Below are positions 1 through 23,202 of a stretch of DNA of 32,709 bases, piece by piece. The stretch is from IMG/VR virus record IMGVR_UViG_3300045988_092706, positions 1-32,709 of that record, one strand, 5' to 3'. Below the pieces are notes generated by a model. That model was not told the origin of the DNA, did not search any database, and saw nothing but the letters and a program-made list of their open reading frames with translations. This stretch comes from a virus. The position numbers were made by a program, and so were the translations under genes. The number at the start of each line of letters is the position of its first letter. The stretch's first letter is position 1.

Positions 1-510
1 AAAACCAGCAAGCGCGAAAAAGACGGTGAAGATGAGGTTCTCTTTACTATCGATTATAATTATTTTCTCGACAACTTTGACGAATGGTTTGAAAAAATCG
101 AAGAGCCGACAACCAGCGTCCGCCGCACGCCAAAAATGGGCGAGGCGTACTTCTATGTCGACGAATATGGAAACGTAGAGCGTGAAATCTGGGACAACGA
201 CGGCGTGGATAATGAGCTTCTCGCTATGGGTTTTGTCCGCCTAACGCCAGAAGAGGCTACGGAAGCCCGCGACCGAAGGCTGGCAGAAGTTAGACTGCGC
301 CAGACCTCAGACTTTGAGCCAGACTTTGCGAAGGGCAAGGGTGGCTGGGTAGTTTGCTATGATTATCTAAATAAAAAGATAGACTGCTTTGACAGTATCT
401 GGAATGACTCAGGAGAACCAGTGCGCTACGCAACCAAAGAGGACGCTCTAAAATCAATCGAAAAAAACGAAGCCGACTGGAAAAAATACTTCGGCATTAA
501 GGAGAACTAA
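1..510 (+). CDS. hypothetical protein, 3' part of a gene spanning the circular junction (5' part at 32550..32709); about 204 aa in total
   Basis: Frame 1 is open from nt 1 (KTSKREKDGEDEVLFTIDYNYFLDNFDEWFEKIEEPTTSVRRTPKMGEAYFYV...). nt 1-55 are identical to 32655-32709 and in frame with GTG 32550. Stop TAA at 508-510. Confidence 0.55.
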   Translation, partial: KTSKREKDGEDEVLFTIDYNYFLDNFDEWFEKIEEPTTSVRRTPKMGEAYFYVDEYGNVEREIWDNDGVDNELLAMGFVRLTPEEATEARDRRLAEVRLRQTSDFEPDFAKGKGGWVVCYDYLNKKIDCFDSIWNDSGEPVRYATKEDALKSIEKNEADWKKYFGIKEN

Positions 511-739: not shown

Positions 740-965
740 ACAGCTAAAGCACATTAACAGTCTATCTTAGCCGCGGAGCTAGAAGCACCAGCACAAAATT
801 ATTAAAAGATTAACTCAATTGATGATATACACACCGTTGGCGCTTCGACGCGGAGGCTCGTCGTACCTTTGTTCTTACGTAAAAAAGTTTTCTACCCGTT
901 TATCATAAACATATTTATCTTGCGAGCCTCCACCTAGCCCTGCGGCTAAGAAGCAGAGGTAAACA

Positions 966-1337
966 ATGAAAAGACAGACGCGACAATTAAGACCACGCGC
1001 AAAGCAGGTCGCGGAAATCCAAGGCTTGGGCGAGGGCTTTATTCACGCCCTGAAGCGAATTGCGAACTTCGCGAAAGCGGGTCAAGTGAAAAACACACGC
1101 GGCGCAATCAAAGACGCCAGCCGCTGGTCAATCGATTACGCGAGCGAACTGGCGCTATACGAATTAGAGCTTCTCGAGTATTGCTTTGAAAACGGCGCAG
1201 AGCCTGAGGAGCTGAAAGAATATATAGCAATGAGGCGGAGCGTTCACCGCGAAGCCAAGACAATAAGGTACTGGAATGAAAACAACAGCAGATGTGAACG
1301 GCTACGACGCGACAAGAAGAAAGAAGCTCAACAATAG
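966..1337 (+). CDS. hypothetical protein, 123 aa
   Basis: ORF with RBS GAGG upstream (gcagaggtaaacaATG). Confidence 0.5.
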   Translation: MKRQTRQLRPRAKQVAEIQGLGEGFIHALKRIANFAKAGQVKNTRGAIKDASRWSIDYASELALYELELLEYCFENGAEPEELKEYIAMRRSVHREAKTIRYWNENNSRCERLRRDKKKEAQQ

Positions 1338-3931: not shown

Positions 3932-4534
3932 ATGACAGAGAATACGCAAACAGAGGTAAAAGAACCGACAGCTCCAACCAAGGACTGGACACCAACCCCA
4001 CCAAGCAAAGAAGCACAGAACGCGAAACGACGACGCGACGCGGTTATGATTGAGCATAAATTGGCGGGCGATGAGAAGAGTTTTACAGAGCTGGCAAGGG
4101 AAACCGTCGTAGTTGACACATCGCAAAAATTGAAACGGGACAAGCACGGTCGCTTCATAAAAGGCACAGGCGTACCCGCAGGATTAGCCGTAAATCCACA
4201 GAACCGAAGCGCGGGCGGCTGGACTAACAAAAATATGATATCTTACTGGTATAAATACTTTATGAAAATGACCACCGCACAGGCGCGACGCTGGCTATCG
4301 AAGGTACCAGAAGACGAGAGAACCGTCGCGCAGGAGATAGCCTTTGCAAGAATTACCGACGCACGCAAGGGTGGTAAAATCGGATTGAATACTACCCAGG
4401 AAATCACAGACCGCACGGAGGGTAAGGCTCCGCAGTTTGTGAACACAAGCATAACGACCTCATCAATCGAAAGCCTGAACCTGACGAACGAAGAACTCGC
4501 ACAAATCGCATTTAACGACGTAGACGAGGACTAA
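3932..4534 (+). CDS. terS: putative terminase small subunit, 200 aa
   Basis: Position immediately upstream of TerL. Basic N-terminal region. No SD sequence, consistent with a leaderless start. The assignment is positional. Confidence 0.4.
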   Translation: MTENTQTEVKEPTAPTKDWTPTPPSKEAQNAKRRRDAVMIEHKLAGDEKSFTELARETVVVDTSQKLKRDKHGRFIKGTGVPAGLAVNPQNRSAGGWTNKNMISYWYKYFMKMTTAQARRWLSKVPEDERTVAQEIAFARITDARKGGKIGLNTTQEITDRTEGKAPQFVNTSITTSSIESLNLTNEELAQIAFNDVDED

Positions 4535-4649
4535 AAACCCGCCTCGTGATATTTTCACGAAAAGGGGGGCGGCAAAAAGACAACCAAATTGCCGCGAAAA
4601 TGAACGCCAAGCCGAAAAATCGGCAAAAAATGGTAAAAAAATATATCAT

Positions 4650-6125
4650 ATGGAGCATATCACGCAGGAACAGGCTCGAGAAATACGCCGAGAACTACAG
4701 AAGCAAGCGCTCGTAAAGCTAGCGCCATATAACCTGTATGCATATGCGAAGGTTATGCGCCCGTCATTTTACCGCGCAGACAGACCGCACTTAAAACAGA
4801 TGTGCGACATATTGCAGTACTTCCTCACCGAAGACCACGGCTATCAATTCTTACTACTCGACGCACCACCACGCCACGGAAAGAGCCTCACAGGACAGAC
4901 CGCGGTGGAGTGGGTCTTTGGCAAGAACCACCTGCTCAAAGTTATGACAGGGAGCTACAACGAAACGCTCTCAACCACCTTCGCCGAAAGCGTGCGCAAC
5001 ACGATAGCCAGCCAGAAGGCAGAAGACCAAACAGTTGTATATAGCGACATCTTTCCATACACAACCCTCCAATCAGGAGAGAGCAGTAAAGCGCTCTGGG
5101 CTTTGAAGGGAAGCTATGGCAAATCGTACCTGGCAACCAGCCCGAAGGGTACCGCGACGGGCTTTGGCGCGAACCTGCTCGTGCTTGACGACACGATTAA
5201 GAGCGCGGAAGAAGCGCTGAACGAGCGAACCCTACAGCAAATCTGGGACTGGTTCACAAGCACAATGCTTCAGCGAATGGAGGGCGACTGGCGCGTGATT
5301 GTCATTATGACCCGCTGGGCAACTGGCGACATCGCGGGCAGGATTAAATCCTCATACGGCGAGGATAAGGTTCTGGAGCTGAACCTGAAAGCAATCGACG
5401 ACAATGGAAATATGCTTTGCCCGAGCATTTTATCACGGGAAGACTACGACCTGAAGACGCAGGAAATGCTTCCAGCCATTGCCGCCGCGAACTATCTCGG
5501 CGAGCCAATGGACGTCAAGGGAGTGCTTTATAAGAGCCTGAACACCTACGCGATTATGCCGCAGACCGACGACGAGCGCGTTTGGGCTTATTGCGACACC
5601 GCAGACACAGGAAGCGACTACCTCTGTATGATTGTCTACAAGATTATCGACAGCGAGGCGTACGTGCTTGACGTCGTCTTTACCGACGAGGATATGGACA
5701 CCACCGAAACAGAGGTCGCGGATTGCCTTTATCGCAATAACGTAACGAACGCCACTTTCGAAAGCAACAACGGCGGACGGCTTTATAGCAAGAATATCGA
5801 GCGACGCCTAGCCGAGAAATACGCAAGCAATAAAACAGTCATCGAGGCAGTGCCGCAACACAAGAATAAGGAGGCGCGTATTCTTTCATCAAGCGCGTGG
5901 GTACAGAAACACGTTTATATGCCAGAGTCGTGGAGTAGTCGCTGGCGAGCTTTTCACACCAACGTCGTGTCGTATCAGAGCAAAGGCAAGAACGCGCACG
6001 ACGACGCGCCAGACGTCCTGGCAAGCATTTACGAGCATATCACCGCGCAATCACCGCCAGTACTGTATAATAAAAGCATATTGACGAACGGCGCCAACAT
6101 CAGCCGTCGCCGCGGATTATTCTAA
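4650..6125 (+). CDS. terL: terminase large subunit, 491 aa
   Basis: Walker-A-like LLLDAPPRHGKS. Acidic nuclease-domain residues (DTADTGSDY...VLDVVFTDE). Position upstream of the portal. Confidence 0.8.
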   Translation: MEHITQEQAREIRRELQKQALVKLAPYNLYAYAKVMRPSFYRADRPHLKQMCDILQYFLTEDHGYQFLLLDAPPRHGKSLTGQTAVEWVFGKNHLLKVMTGSYNETLSTTFAESVRNTIASQKAEDQTVVYSDIFPYTTLQSGESSKALWALKGSYGKSYLATSPKGTATGFGANLLVLDDTIKSAEEALNERTLQQIWDWFTSTMLQRMEGDWRVIVIMTRWATGDIAGRIKSSYGEDKVLELNLKAIDDNGNMLCPSILSREDYDLKTQEMLPAIAAANYLGEPMDVKGVLYKSLNTYAIMPQTDDERVWAYCDTADTGSDYLCMIVYKIIDSEAYVLDVVFTDEDMDTTETEVADCLYRNNVTNATFESNNGGRLYSKNIERRLAEKYASNKTVIEAVPQHKNKEARILSSSAWVQKHVYMPESWSSRWRAFHTNVVSYQSKGKNAHDDAPDVLASIYEHITAQSPPVLYNKSILTNGANISRRRGLF

Positions 6126-6145
6126 GAAAGGGAACACCGCCAAAA

Positions 6146-7528
6146 ATGAGCAAAGCCTTTAAACCATTTACACAAGCACCAGACACAGACCTACACAGCG
6201 TCGACGTTGTGAAAGCCGCGATAGCCTACAACACGAAATTAAAAGCGCGCCTGGACAAATTAGAGAACTACTACTTCGGCGACCACGACATCAACAGCCG
6301 TCAAACGCAGTCAGGCGTGAACAACAAGGTAGTAGTGAACCACGCGAGCTACATCACCGACGTGAATGTCGGCTACTTTTTGGGAAGCCCCGTGGATTAT
6401 GAAACAAGCGAGGGCGTCAACATCGAACCAATTATGGACGAATACGACCGCCAGGTCATCGCAGACCTCGACAGCGAAATAGCCCGCGACGTATCAATAT
6501 ACGGCTACGCCTACGAATACATCTACACAGACGAGAACAGTGCTATCTTCAGCGCGCACTATGACCCGCGCAACGTCGTGCTAGTGCGCGACAATACCGT
6601 CAAGCAGTCGAAAATCGGCGCGATTATTTACATACCGCAGACGGACGACAACGGAACCATTAAGAGCTATACGGTCTACATCGCGGACAAGGAATACGTA
6701 GCCGAATACACGACCGAAGCCGAGCCTAAGAAATTAACAGAGGTAAAACCAAAGCACGCGCACGCAATGGGTGACGTCCCAGTGATTGAATACCGCAACA
6801 ACCCAGCACGCACGGGCGACTTCGAGGGCGTTATCGGATTGATTGACGTCTACAACGTATTGCAGAGCGACCGAATTAACGACAAGGCGCAACTGGTCGA
6901 CGCAATCCTCGCGCTCTATGGAGTGTCATTAACCAACCAGCAGGTAGAAGACCTGAGAAACAACCGCGTCATCTCATCGATACCGAAAGACGCAAAAATA
7001 GAATACATCGTCAAGCAATTAAACGAGTCAGACGCCGAAACGCTTCGCACTTCGATTGAGAAAGACATTCACAAAATCAGCAAGACGCCGAATATGTCAG
7101 ACGAGAACTTTGCAGGCAACTCGTCAGGGGTAGCCCTGAAGTACAAGCTTTTGGCAATGGAGCAGAACATCAAGACCAAGGAACGCTACTTTGAGCGCGG
7201 ACTAATGGAACGTATGGCAATCTACGCAAGCTTCCTCAAGGTCAAGAACAACACCGAGCCAATCACCGCCCGCGACGTTGACGCGAAGTTTACGCGAAGC
7301 CTGCCAGCAAACGACCTGGAAGTAAGCCAGATGATAAACAACTTAACCGACCACGTCGACGACGAAACGCTAATTAGCCAGCTGTCCTTTGTCCGCGACG
7401 CCAGCGAGGTTATCGAGCGATTAAAAGCCGACAAGGAAGACGAGCAAGCAAGCAACGCCGACGACATCAGTAAACTCGAAGAAGCCGAGCCAATAGAACC
7501 AGCAAAGCCAGAAGTAGCCGAGGAGTAG
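6146..7528 (+). CDS. portal protein (SPP1 gp6-like), 460 aa
   Basis: Size and position after TerL. N-terminal LENYYFGDHDI resembles the conserved SPP1-family portal motif. Confidence 0.7.
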   Translation: MSKAFKPFTQAPDTDLHSVDVVKAAIAYNTKLKARLDKLENYYFGDHDINSRQTQSGVNNKVVVNHASYITDVNVGYFLGSPVDYETSEGVNIEPIMDEYDRQVIADLDSEIARDVSIYGYAYEYIYTDENSAIFSAHYDPRNVVLVRDNTVKQSKIGAIIYIPQTDDNGTIKSYTVYIADKEYVAEYTTEAEPKKLTEVKPKHAHAMGDVPVIEYRNNPARTGDFEGVIGLIDVYNVLQSDRINDKAQLVDAILALYGVSLTNQQVEDLRNNRVISSIPKDAKIEYIVKQLNESDAETLRTSIEKDIHKISKTPNMSDENFAGNSSGVALKYKLLAMEQNIKTKERYFERGLMERMAIYASFLKVKNNTEPITARDVDAKFTRSLPANDLEVSQMINNLTDHVDDETLISQLSFVRDASEVIERLKADKEDEQASNADDISKLEEAEPIEPAKPEVAEE

Positions 7529-7532
7529 GCGC

Positions 7533-9179
7533 GTGAAGTCCGCGGAATACTGGCAACAGCGCACCGAAAGACGCGGCGCAGACATAAGCCGACACATTGA
7601 CCGCCAGTCGGTGAACGTTGCAAAAATCTACTCAGACGCGGCGAAGATTGTCCAGCGCGACATCGAGCGAACCTATCAGAAATACAGCGACAAGACAGGA
7701 ATAGATGTCGGACAGCTTAAGGAGTTGCTCAGCCGAGGCGAAACCGACCGCTTCTGGAAAACCGCCGAGGGCAGGCTAAGCCGCCAGTACATCAAGGAAA
7801 ACTACAAGGCACGCATAACGCGCCTCGAGGAGTTTAAGCACAACCTCTACGCGGAGGCTATGACAATCACGAAGCCACGCATAGAACTCTCGACGAAAGC
7901 GCACGCCGAAACAATCAAGCGGAGCTACCTGAAAACCGCCTACGACATCGAGCAGACGACAGGACGCCGCGCACAATTCACGCAAATAAACACCAGGCGA
8001 CTAAACCGTATGCTAGGCGAGCAATGGAACGGCGCGAACTACAGCCAGAATATCTGGAGCAGTACAAACAGATTAGCTCAAGACTTGAGCCAGCGCACAG
8101 CCGCAGGACTACTGGCGGGCAAATCGCCGCAATATCTCGCCCGAGAAGTGCGCCAGCGCTTCGACGTGGGCGCCTACGAGGCAATGAGGCTTATACGCAC
8201 AGAAACGACCTACTTTGAGAACGAAGCCGAAGCCAGGCTATACGAGGAGCTAGGAATAACCGAGTACGTCTTTATGGCGACCTTGGACACGCGCACCAGC
8301 GAAATATGTGGCTCACTGGACGACAAGCGCTTCAAGCTATCGGAGCGCGAGGTAGGCGTAAACTGCCCGCCAATGCACCCGAATTGCCGCTCAAAGATTA
8401 GAGCTTACCTGGGCGACGACGCAGAGCCAAGCCTGAGGCGCTCACGGCTGGAAGACCGCGAAGACCTAGACACAGCACCGAGCGAGGTGCAGAAGTATAG
8501 GAGCTTCGACGATTGGCAGAGCGGACGAGGCGAGGAAACACTAAGCGCGAAACCAACAGCACCACCAATCGCCTACGCAATGCAGGACGTCATCGGAACG
8601 CAGGGCGAGCCAATGGAGCCAGAGGACGCAATCAAGGCAAACCCACGCTACGACGAGGGCGGAGGCTACAAGAGCAACTGCCAGAGGTGCGTCCCCGCAT
8701 ACGAATTAAGACGCCGCGGTTATGATGTGGAAGCTTTACCAAACACCCCGAAACTCAGGCGCGAGTTTAGCGGAACCATACGCGAAATGGAGTGGCTCTG
8801 GAAGAAGGAGGTCGACTTTTTGGGCTGGAAGAAAATCGACGGCAGACTATACAAGTCGGAGTATCCTGAAATGGTAAGCCACACGAAAGAATTGCCAGTA
8901 GGCGCAAGGCTCCAGGTGTTCTTCTACGCCCGCAACGGACGCTCAGGACATACGCTAATAGCCGAGCGCGTGAAATCCACCGCAGGCAATCCAGACGGGC
9001 TGCGTTTTATCGACCCGCAGAACGGCGAAAGCTTCGACACTCCGCCATATAAAAATAAAATGACCAGGTGGGGCTTTATGCGCATAGACAACGCCAAAAT
9101 TGACACGGAAATGCTTCCGTATATCGTGAGAAAATCAGGCAAAGCACAACCGAAACCGAAGAAAGGAGCGAAGAGATGA
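7533..9179 (+). CDS. minor head protein (Mu F / SPP1 gp7 family) with an extra C-terminal domain of about 260 aa, 548 aa
   Basis: GTG start after GAGGAG. MuF signature LDTRTSEICGSLDDKRF...NCPPMHPNCRS. The C-terminal region contains YKSNCQRCVPAYELRRRGYD, GHTL and FIDPQNG (Cys/His/Asp candidates). Confidence 0.7.
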   Translation: MKSAEYWQQRTERRGADISRHIDRQSVNVAKIYSDAAKIVQRDIERTYQKYSDKTGIDVGQLKELLSRGETDRFWKTAEGRLSRQYIKENYKARITRLEEFKHNLYAEAMTITKPRIELSTKAHAETIKRSYLKTAYDIEQTTGRRAQFTQINTRRLNRMLGEQWNGANYSQNIWSSTNRLAQDLSQRTAAGLLAGKSPQYLAREVRQRFDVGAYEAMRLIRTETTYFENEAEARLYEELGITEYVFMATLDTRTSEICGSLDDKRFKLSEREVGVNCPPMHPNCRSKIRAYLGDDAEPSLRRSRLEDREDLDTAPSEVQKYRSFDDWQSGRGEETLSAKPTAPPIAYAMQDVIGTQGEPMEPEDAIKANPRYDEGGGYKSNCQRCVPAYELRRRGYDVEALPNTPKLRREFSGTIREMEWLWKKEVDFLGWKKIDGRLYKSEYPEMVSHTKELPVGARLQVFFYARNGRSGHTLIAERVKSTAGNPDGLRFIDPQNGESFDTPPYKNKMTRWGFMRIDNAKIDTEMLPYIVRKSGKAQPKPKKGAKR

Positions 9180-9430
9180 GCATAACAGCAAGCAGAGCTG
9201 AGCTACTAGTAGGCAAGGGCTACGAAAACGTGGGCGAGATGAAGGGTTACATAATTTACGCGCCGAAAGACGAGGAAACGAAGCTCAAACGCCCACATTA
9301 TCTGGTGGTCGACAAGAACACAGGACGCCTGAGGAATATTTGCTTCGAGCAATTCAGCGACGACGAGGAACTGAACGCGCCGTTTCTGAAAATCGACGCA
9401 GAAGTAAAAGCATATGAGAGTTTATTCTAA
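9176..9430 (+). CDS. hypothetical protein, 84 aa
   Basis: ATGA overlap with the upstream gene (translational coupling). Confidence 0.45.
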   Translation: MSITASRAELLVGKGYENVGEMKGYIIYAPKDEETKLKRPHYLVVDKNTGRLRNICFEQFSDDEELNAPFLKIDAEVKAYESLF

Positions 9431-9434
9431 AATA

Positions 9435-9443
9435 TGTTACAAT
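9435..9443 (+). promoter_or_regulatory. possible extended -10 promoter TGTTACAAT upstream of the scaffold/capsid genes
   Basis: TGnTACAAT in the intergenic region 9431-9539. Confidence 0.3.
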
Positions 9444-9539
9444 TTAAGCAAGCAGGACTAAAGCCGAGCTTGTTCGACGGAACTGAAACGGCAACCTTTA
9501 AGAAAAGCTGACGAGCTTAAAACGGAAAAGGAGATTAAG

Positions 9540-11163: not shown

Positions 11164-11550
11164 GTGAACAAGGAGCAGAAAGAGCGAATAAAGCTACATA
11201 TACAAAGCCTACGCTCGAACGAACAACAACACGACGAAGCACTCGAAGACTTCGTTATTGAAGAAATCGCCGACCGCGTCAAATTATACCTGAACGCCGA
11301 CGAAATCGAACCGCGACTCGAAAGGATTGTAGCGCGAATTGTCGTAGCCAGCTTGACGCAAGCAAGCGAACAAAAAGCGAACGGCAACATTGAGCAAGCA
11401 GTCCAGAGTATCAGCGACAACGGTCAGTCAATCTCATACAAAGACGGTGTAAAGAACTACTACGCAAGCGCCACAGATAGCGAGCTACTGGGCGGCTTTG
11501 CAGAGCTACTGGCACCATACAGGAGGGCGAACGTTGCGGGGGCTAGATAA
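11164..11550 (+). CDS. head-tail connector (gp6-like / SPP1 gp15-like), 128 aa
   Basis: GTG start after AAGGAGG. Pattern KERIKLHIQSLRSNEQQHDEALEDFVIEEIADRVKLYL, typical of the Phage_connect_1 family. Confidence 0.55.
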   Translation: MNKEQKERIKLHIQSLRSNEQQHDEALEDFVIEEIADRVKLYLNADEIEPRLERIVARIVVASLTQASEQKANGNIEQAVQSISDNGQSISYKDGVKNYYASATDSELLGGFAELLAPYRRANVAGAR

Positions 11551-11551
11551 T

Positions 11552-11875
11552 ATGAAGACCGCGGTGGCGCGGACGTTTTACGACAAGGAAGCCGAGCTGC
11601 TGAAACGACAGACCGCGAAGGCTTTCGACGGAAGCAACCGCACGACATACGTAACGGTCGGCAAAATCGTCGGCAATATTCAGACATCAGTGAGCCGTCG
11701 GCTTATTGAGAATTACGGCTTGGACGAAGACACGGAGCTGACTATCACAATAGCTCCATTATCGCCCGCAGAGATAGGCGATAGGCTAAAATACGCGGGA
11801 AAAGTTTATGTCGTACAATCGATAAAGCCGCGGGACAGCCACGTGCTGATAGCCGCAACGAGCGTAAAGCTATGA
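11552..11875 (+). CDS. head closure / head-tail adaptor protein, about 107 aa (alternative TTG start at 11534 after AGGAGGG)
   Basis: Position and size. The ORF-track start at 11498 would overlap the upstream gene by 53 nt. Confidence 0.45.
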   Translation: MKTAVARTFYDKEAELLKRQTAKAFDGSNRTTYVTVGKIVGNIQTSVSRRLIENYGLDEDTELTITIAPLSPAEIGDRLKYAGKVYVVQSIKPRDSHVLIAATSVKL

Positions 11876-13547: not shown

Positions 13548-13897
13548 AACGCAGAGTATCGCAGGCGCTAGGTTTATCCACATACGGCGCGCAATGGCGC
13601 CACCACGAAATCACAGCGCTAGAAATAGGCTTAGACCTGAATTACTACTGGGAATTAACGCCGAAGCAATTCCAGAAGCACGTAACGGCGTACTACACCA
13701 GAGAAAAAGAGAACGAAAAGCGAACAGACCAGCTGAACTACCTCCTCGGCGTTTACGTCGGCTCAGCTGTGAACAACGGAAAGCACTATCCAAAAGAACC
13801 TTTCCTATCGCAAAAGAAGCGGCGCGCAATGACTCCCGAAGAAATGGAGGAGCAGGCAATCCGCAACACGATAAAACTAGGAGGTAACCTAAAATGA
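13191..13897 (+). CDS. tail assembly chaperone GT fusion produced by a -1 programmed frameshift at 13466-13472 (13191..13472 joined to 13472..13897; about 235 aa)
   Basis: Zero-frame GGT TTT TTA gives heptamer T TTT TTA. The -1 frame is open from 13406 to TGA 13895-13897 and encodes a plausible protein (...LGLSTYGAQWRHHEITALEIGLDLNYYWELTPKQFQKHVTAYYTREKENEKRTDQLNYLLGVYVGSAVNNGKHYPKEPFLSQKKRRAMTPEEMEEQAIRNTIKLGGNLK). Its stop overlaps the tape-measure ATG. Confidence 0.6.
13466..13472 (+). other. -1 ribosomal frameshift slippery heptamer U_UUU_UUA
   Basis: Six T then A, in the X XXY YYZ register of the G frame. Confidence 0.55.
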
Positions 13898-16620
13898 CAG
13901 TCGACGAGCTAAAGCTGCTTATAACCGCGAACGCTGACCAGATGAGAAAAGAAATCGGTCGCGCCCGCGCAGATATTGACGCAATCGCTTCGAACGCGAC
14001 AAAAGCCTCGTCGACCGTTTCGGGTTCTTTCCGCGGAATGGGCGCAGGAGCCGTCGCAATGGGTGGATTAGTAGCCGCTGGTATATCGAAAGCCATAGGC
14101 GCTATCACATCGACCTTAGGCGACGCCGTATCACGCGTTGATACGCTAAACAACTTTCCGCGAGTAATGGGCAACCTTGGAATATCAGCCGAAGACGCCC
14201 AGAAATCTATCGACTATATGAGCCAGAAGCTCGTAGGACTGCCAACAACCCTAGACACAGCCGCAAGCGCCGTGCAACGCTTGACCGCCGCGAACGGCAA
14301 CGTCAAAGCCAGCACCGAAATGTTCCTGGCAATGAATAACGCCATAATTGCAGGAGGCGCGCCAGCACAAGTGCAAGCGAGCGCAATCGAGCAATTAAGC
14401 CAGGCTTACGCAAAGGGCAAGCCTGATATGATGGAATGGCGCAATATGATGACCGCAATGCCTGCTCAGTTGAAGCAGGTGGCGCAGTATATGGGCTATG
14501 CCAGCTCGAACCAACTCGGCGAAGCCTTGCGAAGCGGAACCGTCAGTATGAACGACTTTATGAAGGCTATGATAGAGCTGAACCAAAACGGCGCAAACGG
14601 AATAAAGCCTTTCTCAGAGCAAGCCCTAGGCGCCGCGGGCGGAATTGAAACAGCTATCACGAATATGAAGACAGCCTTCACCAGGGGCTTGGCGGACATT
14701 ATGAACGCAATCGGTCAGTCGAACATCGCGGGCTTCTTCCAGATGATAACAAACGCGATTAACGCCGCAATACCGTACGTAGTAGGCTTTGTGAAGGTTA
14801 TGGTTATGGCGGTGAGCTGGATAGGCTCACTCTTCGGCGGCGGAGGCAAGAAAGCCGAAGGAATGAAGAAGGCAGTCGACAGCGTCGGCAAATCAGTCGG
14901 TAGCGTAGGCGCAGGAGCGGCAGGAGCAGGCAAACAGCTCGGCGGAGCCGCAGGGCAAGCAAAGAAGCTCAAGAAAGAGCTGGCAGGCTTGGCGGCGTTT
15001 GATGAGATGAATGTTCTGAAAGAGCCAGAAGACAACGCAGGCGGTGGCGGCGGAGGAGGCGGCGGCGGTATGGATATGAGCGGCTTAGACTTTGACCTTG
15101 GCAATATGGACAAGGGCGCAAGCAAAGCCGACGAAATCGCGCAGAAAATCAAGGACAGCTTCCTGAAGGCTTTCGAGGTTATTCAAAGCACGAAGTCGTG
15201 GCAGGCTTTCGCGAACGGCGTAGGCAAAATCTTCGACGCCTTGGCAAACAACGGCAAGCGGGTATTCTCGAGCATTAGTAACATAGTAGTAGCGCAGACA
15301 AGCGCTTGGTCGACGGTTATCGGACAGCGCGCTGGAGAAATTGACGAACACTTTGCAAATCTGCTTACATCAATGGGTACCACAATCGCGACAGAGATAA
15401 ACGTCTTGGCGGCGCCGTTTGTAGGCTTCTTCGAAGGGCTAGAGGGCGTGATAGTACCGCGAGCCGAAGAAATCGCGAATAACTTCACTACCGCATTTTT
15501 GGGCGCTATGGACATCACCGCGAAGCTGTACGAGCTGGCGAACTCTTTCTTCGAGCCGCTGGTGGAGCCATTAAGGCAAGGCTTCTCAGACATCGGCTAC
15601 TTGGCGGGTACAATCCCAGCAGACCTGCTGCAAGGATTAGCTGACGCCACGCCGCAAATCGTCGACAACCTGACGGGGCTTATGGAAAATATGAAGAGCG
15701 TCTTCACGCAGATAAGCACAATCGTAGGCACAATCTGGACAGACTTCACAGGCACACTGAAAAGCACCTGGGACACCTACGGAAAAGACATATCGAAGGG
15801 AATAGGCGAGTTCTTAGGCAATATCACGGGGACATTTAAGAGGCTCTACAGCGACGTCCTGGAGCCAATCATTAAGCCATTTTTGGACGAGTTCCAGAAG
15901 GTCTGGAAAGACCAACTACAACCCGCGCTGAAAGCCGTAACCGACTTTATCGGCAAATTGGTAGCAGGAGCGCTCGAAATCTACAACAAGTTTATAACGC
16001 CAATTGTGAACTGGATTATAAGCACATTTAAGCCCGTCTGGGTCGCCCTCGGCACGACAATCGGCGGAATAATAAACACCGCGCTAAGCACAATCGGAGG
16101 CTTCGTACGCGGAGTATTCACGGTACTCGGCGGACTGGTTGACTTCATCGCGGGCGTATTCACAGGCAACTGGAAGAAAGCCTTCGAAGGACTAAAAGGA
16201 ATTGTAGGCGGCGCGCTTGGAGCGCTTGGCGCAATCGCAAAGGCACCAATTAACGCGTTGATCGACATCATTAACGGCTTTATTGGCGGCTTGAACCAAA
16301 TCAAAATACCAGATTGGGTGCCAGGTGTCGGCGGTAAGAATATGAACATACCGAAAATCCCGAAGCTCGCCCGCGGTGGTGTGGTTGACCGCGCAACCCT
16401 GGCGGTGGTAGGAGAAGCAGGACGCGAGGCGGTTGTGCCGCTAGAAAACAACACAGGCTGGCTCGATAAAATCGCGAACCAGCTAGCCGAGAGGGGTGGC
16501 GCAGGAAGCCAGGCTCAGACTATAATAGTAAAAATTGGCGAAGACGAACTGGTGCGTCGCGTCATCGACGGAATTAACGACCAGAGCTACTTAAACAATC
16601 AAGGGGTGATATTGGTATAA
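13894..16620 (+). CDS. tail tape measure protein, 908 aa
   Basis: Size and position. Tape-measure core region (MSQKLVGLPTTLDTAASAVQRLTAANGNV...MEWRNMMTAMPAQLKQVAQYMGY). Gly-rich transmembrane-like segments. Poly-Gly run GGGGGGGGG at about 15040-15066. Confidence 0.85.
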   Translation: MTVDELKLLITANADQMRKEIGRARADIDAIASNATKASSTVSGSFRGMGAGAVAMGGLVAAGISKAIGAITSTLGDAVSRVDTLNNFPRVMGNLGISAEDAQKSIDYMSQKLVGLPTTLDTAASAVQRLTAANGNVKASTEMFLAMNNAIIAGGAPAQVQASAIEQLSQAYAKGKPDMMEWRNMMTAMPAQLKQVAQYMGYASSNQLGEALRSGTVSMNDFMKAMIELNQNGANGIKPFSEQALGAAGGIETAITNMKTAFTRGLADIMNAIGQSNIAGFFQMITNAINAAIPYVVGFVKVMVMAVSWIGSLFGGGGKKAEGMKKAVDSVGKSVGSVGAGAAGAGKQLGGAAGQAKKLKKELAGLAAFDEMNVLKEPEDNAGGGGGGGGGGMDMSGLDFDLGNMDKGASKADEIAQKIKDSFLKAFEVIQSTKSWQAFANGVGKIFDALANNGKRVFSSISNIVVAQTSAWSTVIGQRAGEIDEHFANLLTSMGTTIATEINVLAAPFVGFFEGLEGVIVPRAEEIANNFTTAFLGAMDITAKLYELANSFFEPLVEPLRQGFSDIGYLAGTIPADLLQGLADATPQIVDNLTGLMENMKSVFTQISTIVGTIWTDFTGTLKSTWDTYGKDISKGIGEFLGNITGTFKRLYSDVLEPIIKPFLDEFQKVWKDQLQPALKAVTDFIGKLVAGALEIYNKFITPIVNWIISTFKPVWVALGTTIGGIINTALSTIGGFVRGVFTVLGGLVDFIAGVFTGNWKKAFEGLKGIVGGALGALGAIAKAPINALIDIINGFIGGLNQIKIPDWVPGVGGKNMNIPKIPKLARGGVVDRATLAVVGEAGREAVVPLENNTGWLDKIANQLAERGGAGSQAQTIIVKIGEDELVRRVIDGINDQSYLNNQGVILV

Positions 16621-21059: not shown

Positions 21060-21326
21060 ATGGAAGCAAGCGTAACGACATATCTGGCAACGCAAGGCGT
21101 ACTCGGTATAGCCGTCATCGCTTTATCTACCGCGGTTTTCAAACTCTGGAAGAAGAACGAGGAGCTAAACCAAAAGCTCGTCGAAATCGCAGGAGCGAAC
21201 GGACACGAGATGATAGCGTTTTATAAACAGGACGCCGCAAACGAAGCCGAAAAGTCAAAGGCAATTACTCAGATGTCGCACTCAATCGACCTATTAACTG
21301 AGAAGATTAACCGAGGGGGTAATTAA
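21060..21326 (+). CDS. small protein with one TM segment (holin-like or tail-associated), 88 aa
   Basis: Hydrophobic GVLGIAVIALSTAVFKLW followed by a charged tail. Confidence 0.35.
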   Translation: MEASVTTYLATQGVLGIAVIALSTAVFKLWKKNEELNQKLVEIAGANGHEMIAFYKQDAANEAEKSKAITQMSHSIDLLTEKINRGGN

Positions 21327-21327
21327 A

Positions 21328-21543
21328 ATGGACACAGCCGCAGTCATACGAGCGGAATTATACAGCGTGGACATCGAAGCCGCCCGCGAAGAAGCGCGAA
21401 AAGCGCGACAAAATACACAGCAAGCCTACGTGAACCTGGCAAAGAACAGCCAGAAACTAGAGCAACGCATACGTGAAAATCATTTTCACATCACGCTAAA
21501 AAAGGCGGTCAGCGCGCCGAAAAAACAGCCGAAGAAACCATAG
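21328..21543 (+). CDS. hypothetical protein, 71 aa
   Basis: ORF that starts immediately (2 nt) after the upstream gene. Confidence 0.4.
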   Translation: MDTAAVIRAELYSVDIEAAREEARKARQNTQQAYVNLAKNSQKLEQRIRENHFHITLKKAVSAPKKQPKKP

Positions 21544-21547
21544 AAAA

Positions 21548-21871
21548 ATGTTTATAACTATAACCGCAATTGCGCGTATATTGATAGCGACAGCACTTGT
21601 CGCTATTATATTGCGACAGATAGAACTTTACCGACTGAAAGCGCCGAAAGAAGTGCGACACTTAAAAGTATTGCTACTCATTTTATCGATATCATTATTG
21701 ACGAGTAACGCAATTTTACTGATACAGTGGATTATCGGAGCCTACACACATATCGAAATCGCACCCGAGCCGAAAGGCTACGACGGTCTACTTTACTCTA
21801 TCGTCGATATATTAGATGATATAATTACGGTAATAATACTAAGGCTCATTTATAAGGAGGGCGAAAAATGA
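21548..21871 (+). CDS. putative holin / membrane protein with 3 TM segments, 107 aa
   Basis: Three hydrophobic helices (ITAIARILIATALVAIIL; VLLLILSISLLTSNAILLIQWIIGA; IVDILDDIITVIILRLI). Immediately upstream of the lysin. Confidence 0.4.
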   Translation: MFITITAIARILIATALVAIILRQIELYRLKAPKEVRHLKVLLLILSISLLTSNAILLIQWIIGAYTHIEIAPEPKGYDGLLYSIVDILDDIITVIILRLIYKEGEK

Positions 21872-23202
21872 CAGAAATGACAGAGCTACTAGTGCAATCT
21901 TTGCAAGCGTTTGCTTTGTATGGATTAGCGACGATATCGTACACAATCCTGTCGGCTTGGTCGAATATTAACGTTTGGAAAATCAGCGAGGGCTTCGACA
22001 AGAAGCTGTGGCTGAACGGGCTAGCGAAATACGCGCTCCTTGGAGCAAGCACTATAGTTATTATCCTAGTAGCAAAGGCGCTCCTTATCTTTGCGCCGAA
22101 CTGGGGAATTGAATTGCAAGGCGCGAACCAAATCAGCTCGCAGATTATCTTCGGCGTATTAGCGGCAGGAATTGCAGGTATGGTATTGAAGAACATCCAG
22201 AAATTAGCCGAAATCTACGGCGTGAGTCAGAAGAACCTCGACAAAATCACAACCAGCGCGCTCGAGAAAGAAGACGCAGAAGCACCGCTGGTGATTGACG
22301 TGGCAGACCTTCCGAACGGCAAGAAAGCCAAAGACGCAGACGTTGAAAAAGCGGTAGAGAAATCGGGCGCAAAAGCGCTCCTAGACAGCGGACGCGGAGC
22401 AAGCGTACCAACCGACAGCTGGCAGAGTTTTCGCAACGCGGTTATAAATCAAGCCTTTGACGTTGACGGCGCATACGGCGCGCAATGCTGGGACGGAGGC
22501 GCGCTCTTCTGGCTGAACGCAGTCGGTAGGACTTTGTCCACAGGCGGCACAGGCGCGGCACGCGGAGCCTGGGAAGCTGCTCGTGGTTATAACGCAGGGA
22601 GCGAGTTTGAACTCATCACAGACAGAAACGCAATCCAACCAGGTGACTGGCTCTTCTTTGGCGGCACGCAATGGGGACACGTCGGAATGGCAGTGTCGAA
22701 CAACCTCGGCGGCTACGTGAGGCTATTAGGGCAGAACCAAACAGGCAACGGCAACGGCGCACCATTTACTGAAATCAATATGAACCTCGGAAGCTTCTTA
22801 GGGGCTATGAGGCTGAAGCGCTGGCACATCGCACCAGCACCAGCTCCAGCACCGCAACCGCAACTATCACCCGACGAGGTAGCCGCGCAGGTCATCCGCG
22901 GTGATTGGGGCAACGGCGACGACCGACGCGCAAGATTAGCAGGAGCGGGTTATAACCCTGATGATATTCAGAACCGCGTAAACGCTAAGCTATCGCAGGC
23001 AACACCAGCAGAGCCAGAAGCGCCACGCTTCAGCGTAGGCGATATTGTCCAGCCGAAAGTAGCCGTAGACTACAACGGAACGCCACTTACGCAATACGAC
23101 AACAACTACGTAATTACCGAATTGATAGGCGACAGAGCCGTATTATCAGCCCGAGGGCAGGTCTGGGCGGCTTTGAATACAAACAACCTGAGAAAGGCTT
23201 AG
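21868..23202 (+). CDS. endolysin: N-terminal 3-4 TM region + CHAP peptidase + CW_7 repeat + SH3-like C-terminus, 444 aa
   Basis: CHAP Cys/His motifs YGAQCWDGGALFW and GHVGMAVS. CW_7-like VIRGDWGNGDDRRARLAGAGYNPDDIQNRVNAKL. PAPAPAPQPQ linker. N-terminal 120 aa hydrophobic. Confidence 0.7.
   Translation: MTEMTELLVQSLQAFALYGLATISYTILSAWSNINVWKISEGFDKKLWLNGLAKYALLGASTIVIILVAKALLIFAPNWGIELQGANQISSQIIFGVLAAGIAGMVLKNIQKLAEIYGVSQKNLDKITTSALEKEDAEAPLVIDVADLPNGKKAKDADVEKAVEKSGAKALLDSGRGASVPTDSWQSFRNAVINQAFDVDGAYGAQCWDGGALFWLNAVGRTLSTGGTGAARGAWEAARGYNAGSEFELITDRNAIQPGDWLFFGGTQWGHVGMAVSNNLGGYVRLLGQNQTGNGNGAPFTEINMNLGSFLGAMRLKRWHIAPAPAPAPQPQLSPDEVAAQVIRGDWGNGDDRRARLAGAGYNPDDIQNRVNAKLSQATPAEPEAPRFSVGDIVQPKVAVDYNGTPLTQYDNNYVITELIGDRAVLSARGQVWAALNTNNLRKA

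Follow-up and report, generated by a model that had tools for sequence, protein, structure and literature searches.

Here, we describe a phage gene that is probably a natural translational fusion of a holin-like module with three transmembrane (TM) domains and an endolysin, the membrane module being a putative hole former. The gene is located in the window, that is, the whole 32,709-nt stretch of DNA that was analyzed, which corresponds to IMG/VR record IMGVR_UViG_3300045988_092706 (Table 1). Holin-endolysin lysis is taught as the work of two proteins, whereby a soluble enzyme has to wait until a separate membrane protein makes an opening. A sequence-only reading of the window had proposed that this lysin is itself anchored by several membrane helices, either as a holin-endolysin fusion or as a SAR-like lysin. 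The first of these proposals is supported: the architecture is conserved and under selection, and free, holin-sized versions of the membrane module are found beside endolysin genes.

Table 1. Positions of the fusion gene, its parts and its upstream neighbors in the window.
Feature	Position (nt)	Strand	Basis or remark
orf88, one N-terminal TM (aa 9-27), charged helical tail	21060..21326	+	hydropathy
orf71, small, soluble, highly charged, basic C-terminus	21328..21543	+	no hydrophobic segment
orf107, two strong TMs (aa 3-21, 41-59) plus an amphipathic third segment of acidic character	21548..21871	+	hydropathy
Shine-Dalgarno sequence AAGGAGG	21854..21860	+	7 nt 5' of ATG 21868
Whole fusion gene	21868..23202	+	444 codons + stop
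N-terminal module, aa 1-117: predicted TMs ~12-31, 55-76, 89-107, then basic juxtamembrane helix	21868..22218	+	hydropathy, conservation, charge, AF2
Charged linker, aa 118-185: helix 121-133, disordered 138-175	22219..22422	+	AlphaFold
CHAP peptidase domain, aa 186-320; candidate triad C207, H271, N290	22423..22827	+	Pfam, PHROG, Foldseek
Pro/Ala-rich interdomain linker, aa 321-333, APAPAPAPQPQ	22828..22866	+	sequence
One CW_7 (Cpl-7-type) repeat, aa 336-375	22873..22992	+	Pfam, Foldseek
Conserved β-rich C-terminal domain, aa ~388-444	23029..23199	+	alignment A3, AlphaFold

Reading frame and integrity of the fusion gene

The open reading frame (ORF) that had been reported is present and encodes a product of 444 amino acids (aa). 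From the N terminus, the protein comprises three hydrophobic helices, a linker of ~70 aa, a CHAP domain, a Pro/Ala linker, one CW_7 repeat, and a β-rich C-terminal domain. The AAGGAGG before M1 is the top Shine-Dalgarno (SD) match in the window when 26 genes are compared. We find no similarity between the window DNA and deposited phages, and the GenBank relatives of the protein (DAQ64515.1 and DAX60900.1) carry a single name, “CW7 repeat protein.”

A frameshift or an assembly artefact that merged two genes can be ruled out. The ORF is uninterrupted in 12 independent IMG/VR contigs, which share 97-99% aa identity, and pN/pS is 0.02-0.07 in all of its segments (TM module, 0.03; linker, 0.04; CHAP, 0.02). 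The entire chain is under purifying selection.

A single ORF might still yield two products, a holin and a soluble lysin, through internal initiation or proteolysis of the linker, with the fusion as their precursor. Codons 146-200 contain no in-frame ATG, GTG, or TTG, and the two GTG codons V142 and V145 are without an SD. The internal start that had been suggested at ATG 22180 (M105) does not hold up: it is situated within TM3 and is not conserved, and its AGGA is weak. Nor is any junction Met conserved across the family (alignment A3). We thus find no site, at ATG 22180 or elsewhere, with support for internal initiation. A lambda-style dual start at M1/M4 was likewise rejected, as the stretch M1-T-E-M4 has no basic residue, M4 is not conserved, and the SD is placed for M1. 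As to proteolysis, the linker is disordered at aa 138-175 (pLDDT <50 at aa 138-167), and its motif P-L-V-I-D-V-x-D-L-P, conserved within the close clade, could be a processing site. Furthermore, possible cleavage has been raised for a fusion of the TpeE type (PMC9527704). Such clipping is, however, compatible with a functional fusion rather than an alternative to it, and we regard the two-product explanation as quite improbable.

Helices and topology of the N-terminal module

TM segments were assigned from hydropathy, charge bias, conservation, and predicted helices. A 19-residue Kyte-Doolittle (KD) scan of the window protein places hydrophobic segments at residues 12-30 (1.30, weak), 57-75 (2.52), and 89-107 (1.99). 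Roughly 105 of 120 homologues show these three segments as well, at about residues 10, 52, and 88, and their TM1 is more hydrophobic (1.8-2.2) than that of the window protein. AlphaFold predicts helices at residues 2-36, 45-79, and 91-117, and an AF2 model of the N-terminal module alone has a pLDDT of 85 and a pTM of 0.74. Of the three to four helices proposed from the sequence, three are therefore upheld by hydropathy, homologues, and AlphaFold, and the fourth is not. The weakness of TM1 in the window protein (KD 1.30) is an observation that speaks against the fusion reading.

The distribution of positive charge is strongly biased. Lys and Arg (K+R) amount to 7.64 in loop 1 plus the flank after TM3, versus 0.52 for N-tail and loop 2 together, across 107 of 107 fused members; the same bias is present in all 36 free-standing members (36/36). 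The 20 residues after TM3 hold 3.8 K+R, and the N-tail is short and acidic. Because the number of TMs is odd and the positive-inside bias is strong, the enzyme is placed inside the cell. We thus predict an N-out/C-in topology for the module, which is like that of class I holins and not SAR-like.

Endolysins with SAR domains or signal peptides are well known, and the protein could in principle be an exported lysin of this kind: Sec-dependent, with its CHAP domain outside the membrane, tethered, and inactive until depolarisation. The weakly hydrophobic TM1 would suit such a protein, as would the Gly/Ala/Ser/Thr content of all three helices (~0.4), which resembles that of SAR domains. The charge distribution argues otherwise, since K+R values of 7.6 versus 0.5 in every fused member, together with the odd number of TMs, put the enzyme on the cytoplasmic side. 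The short acidic N-tail also fits an N-out orientation, and free-standing modules lack an enzyme that could be exported. On the grounds of charge topology, and of three helices in place of one, we reject the SAR-like alternative that had been offered for this gene and consider export extremely improbable.

A holin-like family outside the catalogued ones

No significant profile match places the module in a known holin family (Phage_holin_*, Holin_BhlA, Holin_LLH, Holin_SPP1, or PHROG). When 26 fused N-terminal modules were compared with Pfam and PHROG holins, nothing was significant, and the best match was Phage_holin_4_1 (E = 0.07, in 2 of the 26). Among 49 free modules, again with no significant holin family in Pfam or PHROG, the sole match was one to Phage_holin_3_6 (E = 0.008). 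Holin_BhlA matched neither the window protein nor the N-terminal modules. Fold searches with the N-terminal module returned generic three-helix bundles only in BFVD and PDB, and proteins named “Holin” appeared in BFVD only at E~1. The module is thus outside the catalogued families, which counts against the fusion reading; it is considered holin-like on the basis of size, topology, and gene neighborhood.

The enzyme and its wall-binding domains

The enzyme part is a bona fide endolysin by profile and structural-model evidence, and is predicted to cleave peptidoglycan. Its assignment as a CHAP peptidase, made previously from sequence motifs, is confirmed by several lines of evidence. The Pfam match to PF05257 is borderline (26.2 bits against a cut-off of 26), and five PHROG endolysin families match the same region with E values of 3e-16 to 9e-8. 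Foldseek aligns the domain, which is modeled with pLDDT >90, to the CHAP domains of LysIME-EF1, LysGH15, and LysK (6ist, 4olk, 4csh) at 2.2-2.6 Å over 130-141 residues (E = 4e-6 to 2e-5). The candidate catalytic residues C207, H271, and N290 are invariant among 34 diverse sequences.

The PAPAPAPQPQ linker noted earlier is indeed found (aa 323-333), and its P325, P327, and P329 are nearly invariant in alignment A3. It is followed by a single CW_7 repeat, as had been claimed, with a Pfam score of 60.5 bits (PF08230; cut-off, 25). Foldseek matches this repeat to the Cpl-7 repeat 4cvd with a TM-score of 0.90 and 45% identity, in a three-helix repeat fold.

The C-terminal domain has five strands, with pLDDT >90. 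It has no Pfam family and no PDB sequence match, and its fold matches are weak, being to SH3/Tudor/Agenet-type structures (Foldseek, E 0.06-0.3). The sequence-only reading had described this tail as SH3-like: a conserved β-rich domain is present, and the SH3 label is plausible given weak fold matches only. The domain is retained in family members without CW_7 and in a soluble split homologue (locus L105, below). It is probably a small-barrel wall-binding module.

Fused and free forms in metagenomes

The holin-endolysin fusion is rarely described, yet it is common in metagenomes. More than 100 homologues share the fused architecture over their full length, with identity down to ~34%. A profile search recovered 372 cluster representatives that bear the module. 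Among the best 150 of these 372, 99 are shorter than 200 aa and 46 have at least 300 aa, and about a third are fused. A word-indexed search with alignment A2 gave 9 matches. The arrangement had been called uncommon, which is true of the literature and untrue of nature.

The module also stands alone, as many proteins of 115-175 aa. In all four informative contexts (4/4), this free module adjoins an endolysin gene. Three further contigs, which give the contexts of P0134, P0143, and P0170 (L021, L022, and the contig of P0143), are too short to be informative. In L105, the gene after the free module overlaps it and encodes a soluble protein with CHAP and the C-terminal domain, which aligns with aa 173-444 of the family (hhalign, 99.1%, E = 1.6e-18); L105 is, by this alignment, an exact split version of the fusion gene. 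In L004, the gene after the free module encodes a CHAP-like+LysM protein; this protein and the enzymatic portion of the fused P0167 are 49% identical (E = 9e-38). The other two contexts have the reverse order: a Peptidase_M15_4 lysin gene overlaps that of the free module in L104, and an Amidase_2+PG_binding_1 lysin gene precedes it by an 11-nt gap in L023. Thus, three enzyme classes occur beside the free module, and at least three CHAP sub-types are partners of the fused module in other phages. These sequence comparisons identify the TM module as an autonomous evolutionary unit.

Upstream ORFs

Two separate candidate holins had been proposed just upstream of the fusion gene. Both ORFs exist, evolve under purifying selection, and encode membrane proteins; the single-TM type recurs in relatives, and the two-TM orf107 is specific to the lineage. 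Neither orf88 nor orf107 matches a known family in Pfam or PHROG, and the same is true of orf71, which lies between them. In colinear relatives, pN/pS is 0.02 for orf88 and 0.00 for orf71. A single-TM protein with the architecture of orf88 is encoded directly upstream of the fusion in loci L019, L020, L001, L010, and L012. These five proteins are homologous to each other, with no detectable homology to orf88, and their family has only weak matches to phrog_4257. We consider orf88 a candidate lysis partner of the co-holin or antiholin type.

The stop codon of orf107 overlaps the start codon of the fusion gene (ATGA), and orf107 is intact in 13 of 13 contigs, with pN/pS of 0.08. Close to the fusion, the coding strand has no equivalent of orf107 in the five loci above or in L005, where the single-TM partner is also absent from the coding strand. 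Most relatives have no other multi-TM ORF near the fusion on that strand. Thus, orf107 is a candidate additional holin or antiholin, specific to the lineage of the window's phage. Its translational coupling also means that orf107 could be the real holin, an observation that counts against the fusion reading.

These neighbors bear on whether the N-terminal module makes holes at all. It might act as a passive tether that keeps the endolysin at the membrane's inner face, with orf107, orf88, or both as the true holin(s). The two strong TMs of orf107, its ATGA overlap with the fusion start, and its presence in every contig would all agree with this, as would the single-TM protein that accompanies the fusion in most relatives. 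However, free modules hold the holin position beside soluble lysins, where there is nothing to tether. Furthermore, the six related loci lack an orf107 counterpart, and L005 lacks the single-TM partner as well. A purely passive tether is therefore rather unlikely.

Genome position and host

The fusion gene of the window is located at the end of the tail module, ahead of the replication genes. This is the usual post-tail lysis position, which is also seen in L019, L020, L010, and L012. The gene is flanked by tape-measure and Dit (DUF6711) genes in L005 and L004. A role as a virion-associated (tail) lysin or ejection protein is ruled out by the wall-binding domains, the post-tail lysis position, and the pairing of free modules with classical endolysins.

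The host is probably a monoderm member of the Saccharibacteria (Patescibacteria) from a human or animal microbiome. This assignment is based on two Saccharibacteria MAG contigs and one NCBI protein name, with which one “Sangeribacter” bin conflicts. To our knowledge, the lysis biology of Saccharibacteria phages is unstudied. If the host is a member of this group, the lysis cassette of the window would be one of the first to be described for its phages.

Proposed mechanism and implications

For the holin-endolysin fusion, we propose that the module would insert N-out/C-in, in the manner of a class I holin; the enzyme would therefore build up in folded form on the cytoplasmic side of the membrane, tethered and harmless. 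The modules may then, at a set time, oligomerise and open a lesion, with orf88 and orf107 as possible regulators of the co-holin or antiholin type. The enzyme might then reach the wall through the lesion on its long linker, or after the linker is clipped, dock through CW_7 and the C-terminal domain, and cut peptidoglycan. The fusion would fix a 1:1 holin:lysin ratio, and the lysin would stay on the cell debris. That an enzyme tethered on the C-in side needs a route to the wall is an observation that weighs against the fusion reading. Lambda S105 can bear GFP at its C terminus, and very large endolysin fusions get through S holes; thus, a holin loaded at its C terminus is physically plausible.

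A more far-reaching interpretation is that the three-TM module constitutes a previously unrecognised holin family, and that its fused form is a self-sufficient, single-polypeptide lysis device, which carries its own endolysin through the lesion, keeps it anchored to the cell remains, and serves phages of Saccharibacteria (CPR/Patescibacteria) in particular. We advance this tentatively, and with some doubt. If the module is such a family, its repeated fusion and fission would provide a natural experiment on holin-endolysin stoichiometry and lesion crossing.

A large natural family that covalently joins a holin-like module and a lysin, with the enzyme predicted to be cytoplasmic, is a departure from the textbook model. 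It raises the questions of how a tethered enzyme crosses a lesion, whether a 1:1 ratio is sufficient, and whether tethering spares neighboring hosts. Related phages offer matched fused and split versions, which makes for a tractable test system. There are also practical consequences. The TM module is outside the catalogued holin families and invisible to Pfam-based endolysin surveys, which leaves a blind spot. Such lysins are mis-described, and full-length expression of one as an enzybiotic would fail; the usable enzyme would be the soluble portion, aa ~175-444.

Comparison with known systems

The membrane module resembles class I holins such as lambda S105 in its length (~110 residues), its three TMs, its predicted N-out/C-in topology, and its location next to an endolysin gene. 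It also shares their short N-tail without positive charge and their charged cytoplasmic C-terminal flank. Unlike these holins, it lacks the Met-Lys-Met dual-start motif, which is frequent in class I holins though not obligatory, and its C terminus runs into an enzyme. Nor does it resemble any catalogued holin family in sequence or fold.

SAR endolysins (P1 Lyz, phage 21 R21, and phiKMV gp45) likewise have a membrane segment of their own at the N terminus and are tethered before lysis. Their segment is a single N-in/C-out helix, exported by Sec, and the enzyme waits in the periplasm, whereas there are three helices in the window protein, and its enzyme is predicted to be C-in. The catalytic fold, with its Cys-His-Asn residues, is shared with the CHAP endolysins of Gram-positive phages (LysK/LysGH15 CHAP, PlyGRCS, and LysIME-EF1), and the CW_7 repeat with Cpl-7. 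The modular order of enzyme, linker, and binding domain is common to endolysins of Gram-positive phages. In contrast to the window protein, LysK, LysGH15, PlyGRCS, LysIME-EF1, and Cpl-7 are soluble and need a separate holin.

The endolysin of Hafnia phage Enc34, a Gram-negative phage, also has an integral TM segment (PMC8943055). This segment is a single C-terminal helix, and the enzyme has a different, lysozyme fold.

The natural fusion of a TpeE/BhlA-family holin and an endolysin in Clostridium sporogenes (WP_163247266.1; Microb Cell 2022, PMC9527704) is alike in having an N-terminal holin and a C-terminal endolysin; there, too, the cargo is on the cytoplasmic side at first and has to get across together with, or alongside, its own holin. 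That protein is known from six genomes, all of one species, and has been discussed for non-lytic secretion (PMC9527704). Its single-TM holin consists of one short TM and an amphipathic helix, whereas the module of the window protein has three TMs and is unrelated in sequence. Furthermore, the window protein is encoded in a phage lysis cassette and belongs to a large family.

A single, conserved protein

The fusion gene of the lysis region (see table) encodes one real protein of 444 aa and not an artefact. AAGGAGG, 7 nt before M1, is the top Shine-Dalgarno match among 26 window genes. An internal start at ATG 22180 (M105), raised by an earlier sequence-only reading, finds no support: this sole internal ATG ahead of the enzyme lies within transmembrane (TM) helix 3 and has a weak AGGA. 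ATG, GTG, and TTG are all absent from codons 146-200, and the family alignment has no conserved Met at the junction of module and enzyme. At least 12 IMG/VR contigs (32.5-33.5 kb) represent this same phage, and the ORF is unbroken in every one. Among 13 sequences compared, synonymous changes vastly exceed non-synonymous ones in each segment (pN/pS: TM module, 0.03; linker, 0.04; CHAP, 0.02; Pro/Ala linker plus CW_7, 0.07; C-terminal domain, 0.04). Near-identical GenBank proteins (DAQ64515.1 and DAX60900.1) bear only the name "MAG TPA: CW7 repeat protein [Caudoviricetes sp.]". The ORF begins M-T-E-M-T-E (21868..21879), with two in-frame Met three codons apart. Its likeness to a holin-type dual start is superficial: the residue between the Mets is acidic, not basic, and the second Met is unconserved in homologues.

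The window, a phage genome of siphovirus type (G+C ~0.50), has every gene on the + strand and no tRNA genes. AT skew is strongly positive over the entire genome (+0.22 to +0.41). Because the antisense strand is T-rich, it carries many spurious hydrophobic shadow ORFs, such as 21846..22196 (-) within the fusion gene. Tape-measure residues 602-861 match the endolysin-annotated PHROG phrog_971 (E=1.3e-10), and may be muralytic or merely a TMP-like segment.

Coordinates of features in the window, the fusion protein (AlphaFold2 segments), and related loci
Sequence	Feature	Position	Strand	pLDDT
Window (nt)	Large terminase	4650	+	
Window (nt)	Portal	6146	+	
Window (nt)	Minor head protein	7533	+	
Window (nt)	Tape measure	13894..16620	+	
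Window (nt)	Tail proteins	16992, 19053	+	
Window (nt)	Four lysis-region ORFs (orf88; orf71; orf107; fusion), between tail genes and DnaD-like gene	21060..21326; 21328..21543; 21548..21871; 21868..23202	+	
Window (nt)	DnaD-like replication protein	24373	+	
Window (nt)	ParB/methyltransferase	30168	+	
Fusion (aa)	Three long helices	2-36, 45-79, 91-117		60-73
Fusion (aa)	Short helix	121-133		
Fusion (aa)	Disordered stretch	138-175		<50
Fusion (aa)	CHAP	185-320		>90
Fusion (aa)	Three-helix CW_7	335-377		>90
Fusion (aa)	Five-stranded C-terminal domain	393-443		>90
L001	Single-TM partner; His-rich protein	7926-8291; 11430-11837		
L004	Lysis genes (split)	4001-5038		
L005	His-rich protein; lysis gene (fused)	5383-5778; 5920-7119		
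L010	Single-TM partner	4487-4936		
L012	Single-TM partner	5440-5889		
L019	Single-TM partner; His-rich protein	9080-9487; 13610-13975		
L105	Single-TM partner	788-1240		

Domains and family of the fusion

Pfam, PHROGs, and Foldseek bear out the CHAP and CW_7 modules of the sequence-only reading. Pfam places CHAP at aa 201-290 (26.2 bits, right at the cut-off) and CW_7 at aa 336-375 (60.5 bits), with no match in residues 1-180; in PHROGs, the C-terminal two thirds match several endolysin families. Of the "three to four" TM helices proposed, three stand, at hydrophobic segments 12-30 (weak), 57-75, and 89-107 of a hydropathy scan, and the fourth falls away. In the AlphaFold2 model of the whole fusion (mean pLDDT 78), the CHAP domain superposes on the phage endolysins LysIME-EF1, LysGH15, LysK, and PlyGRCS (rmsd 2.2-2.6 A; Foldseek against PDB), and its C207, H271, and N290 are invariant in the alignment. 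The same search matches CW_7 to the Cpl-7 repeat (TM-score 0.90) and, weakly, the C-terminal domain to SH3/Tudor/Agenet barrels; the latter domain has no sequence match in PDB. The N-terminal module (aa 1-117) is modelled confidently by itself (pLDDT 85, pTM 0.74), with nothing specifically alike in BFVD or PDB.

The fused architecture runs through the family. Among 5.8 billion proteins searched, 227 relatives emerged; dozens span 99-100% of the query at 34-74% identity, and of the 120 relatives listed, some 105 show three hydrophobic segments near residues 10, 52, and 88. The alignment shows an N-x-N-I-W…W-D/S-W-K loop after TM1, a conserved G-x-D/E within loop 2, and a basic K-N stretch past TM3. 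Since a few relatives have a single TM helix or lack any, signal-anchored and soluble versions of the enzyme exist as well. Fusion partners of the module include at least three CHAP sub-types ("QCWDG", "TYPEPYRSA…CYNRE", and "GWQCSKY"). Some fused members (P0086, P0087, and P0089, 742-749 aa; P0140, 727 aa; P0163, 755 aa) have an intein, made up of Intein_splicing and LAGLIDADG homing-endonuclease domains, near the CHAP start, so that the lysin would need protein splicing for activity.

Membrane topology

Lys and Arg residues were counted segment by segment in 107 aligned fused members. Their mean is 0.19 in the N-tail of ~10 residues (D+E, 1.38), 3.83 in loop 1, 0.34 in loop 2, and 3.80 in the 20 residues after TM3. 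The "inside" sum (7.64) exceeds the "outside" sum (0.52) in 107/107 fused members, and the same bias holds in 36/36 free-standing homologues. By the positive-inside rule, the module is thus predicted to be N-out/C-in, so the enzyme would start on the cytoplasmic side. This topology is that of class I holins and opposite to that of SAR or signal-anchored lysins; the suggested SAR-like lysin is unsupported by these counts.

The module as a free-standing protein

The fused module matches no Pfam or PHROG family. A profile of 26 modules, searched against 1.84 billion representative proteins, gave 372 matches at E<=1e-3 (108 at E<=1e-10); the 150 best include 99 proteins of <200 aa and 46 of >=300 aa. 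The free-standing proteins match no known holin family in Pfam or PHROG.

Four contexts were long enough to read; in each, an endolysin gene adjoins the free module. In L105, a 131-aa module precedes and overlaps the gene of a soluble 283-aa protein that aligns to family aa 173-444 (hhalign 99.1%, E=1.6e-18); this pair corresponds exactly to the window's fusion gene in split form. In L004, a 134-aa module is followed, after an 81-nt gap, by a 183-aa CHAP-like plus LysM protein, which shares 49% identity (E=9e-38) with the enzyme part of P0167, a protein in which this module occurs fused. The order is reversed in a Filifactoraceae prophage (L104), where a Peptidase_M15_4/VanY lysin gene overlaps a downstream module of 125 aa, and in L023, where an Amidase_2 plus PG_binding_1 lysin precedes a 130-aa module by 11 nt. 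Lysis genes of L005 and L004 lie between the tape-measure and DUF6711 distal-tail genes and not after the tail fibre genes, an unusual placement for a lysis cassette.

These neighbourhoods are decisive for the module's identity. Because it is small, has three TM helices, is predicted to be N-out/C-in, is shuffled between lysins unrelated to each other, and lies in the holin position, the module has the features on which holins are usually annotated from genomes, and we infer hole formation from them. Together with the conserved fused family, the free modules beside endolysins support the earlier reading of a holin-endolysin fusion: a holin-like module, with a probable role in lysis, joined to an endolysin. 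The fusion is built on an uncatalogued holin-like family.

Other small proteins of the lysis cassette

The three small ORFs upstream of the fusion are real genes. The product of orf88 has a single N-terminal TM helix and a charged tail, an architecture also found immediately upstream of the fusion in L019, L020, L001, L010, and L012. Those single-TM partners and that of L105 are mutually homologous (E=1e-6 to 1e-9), whereas orf88 has no detectable homology to them. They are proteins of 120-150 aa whose features are a single TM helix at the N-terminus, a coiled-coil, and a conserved C-terminal "LxGNG…W" motif; their sole match is weak, to phrog_4257 (function unknown). This partner family accompanies both fused and split modules; L005 has no single-TM partner near the fusion on the coding strand. 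His-rich proteins of 121-135 aa near the fusion gene in three different phages (L005, L001, and L019) resemble one another by eye (…HH…R…W…GYA.A.R…H.E.H…VP.P).

The module could merely tether the enzyme, with a different protein acting as holin. Within the window, orf107, with two strong TM helices and a stop codon overlapping the fusion's ATG, is a credible co-holin or antiholin. However, orf107 has no coding-strand counterpart near the fusion in six other loci; in most relatives, the module is therefore the sole multi-pass membrane module of the lysis region, which argues against a mere tether.

Proposed mechanism and likely host

As a holin-like part of the fusion, the module would insert N-out/C-in, with the folded enzyme waiting at the cytoplasmic face. 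Modules would then open a lesion at a time that orf88 and orf107 may set. In a monoderm host, the flexible linker of ~70 residues might allow the enzyme past the rim of the lesion and on to the neighbouring wall, or the linker might be clipped; CW_7 and the C-terminal barrel would dock the enzyme, and CHAP would cut peptidoglycan. Lambda S105 with a C-terminal GFP stays functional, and S lesions let very large endolysin fusions through, which makes this mechanism physically reasonable.

A Saccharibacteria host is likely, if unproven. Relatives that include the TM module occur in three species-representative genomes: two Candidatus Saccharibacteria MAGs (sheep ileum and mouse gut) and one binned as Sangeribacter, whose cassette is essentially that of the mouse Saccharibacteria contig. 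The Sangeribacter (L010) and Candidatus Saccharibacteria (L012) MAGs carry near-identical cassettes (partner protein 86% identical) and are assigned to different phyla, so that at least one of these binning-based hosts is in doubt. P0103 is NCBI MBR3254227.1, [quoted passage not shown], and its cluster includes a 274-kb contig. In Clostridia genomes, the match is limited to the CHAP core; the free module is present in a Firmicutes prophage (L104). Terminase relatives yielded no organism names. Among the IMG/VR copies of the window phage are some from IMG datasets with 7000000xxx numbers, presumably Human Microbiome Project assemblies.

Comparison with known lysis systems

Full-text searches, with most subscription journals outside their coverage, turned up no account of endolysins fused to a three-TM holin-like module, nor of Saccharibacteria phage lysis genes. 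Large Pfam-based endolysin surveys disregard TM segments (PMC5968864, PMC13284279). The arrangement, with its module of putative lysis function, is widespread, mechanistically provocative, and directly testable. The one natural holin-endolysin fusion found in these searches, present in six C. sporogenes genomes, consists of a single-TM TpeE/BhlA-type holin and its endolysin; a 2022 description calls it "so far not recognized" (PMC9527704).
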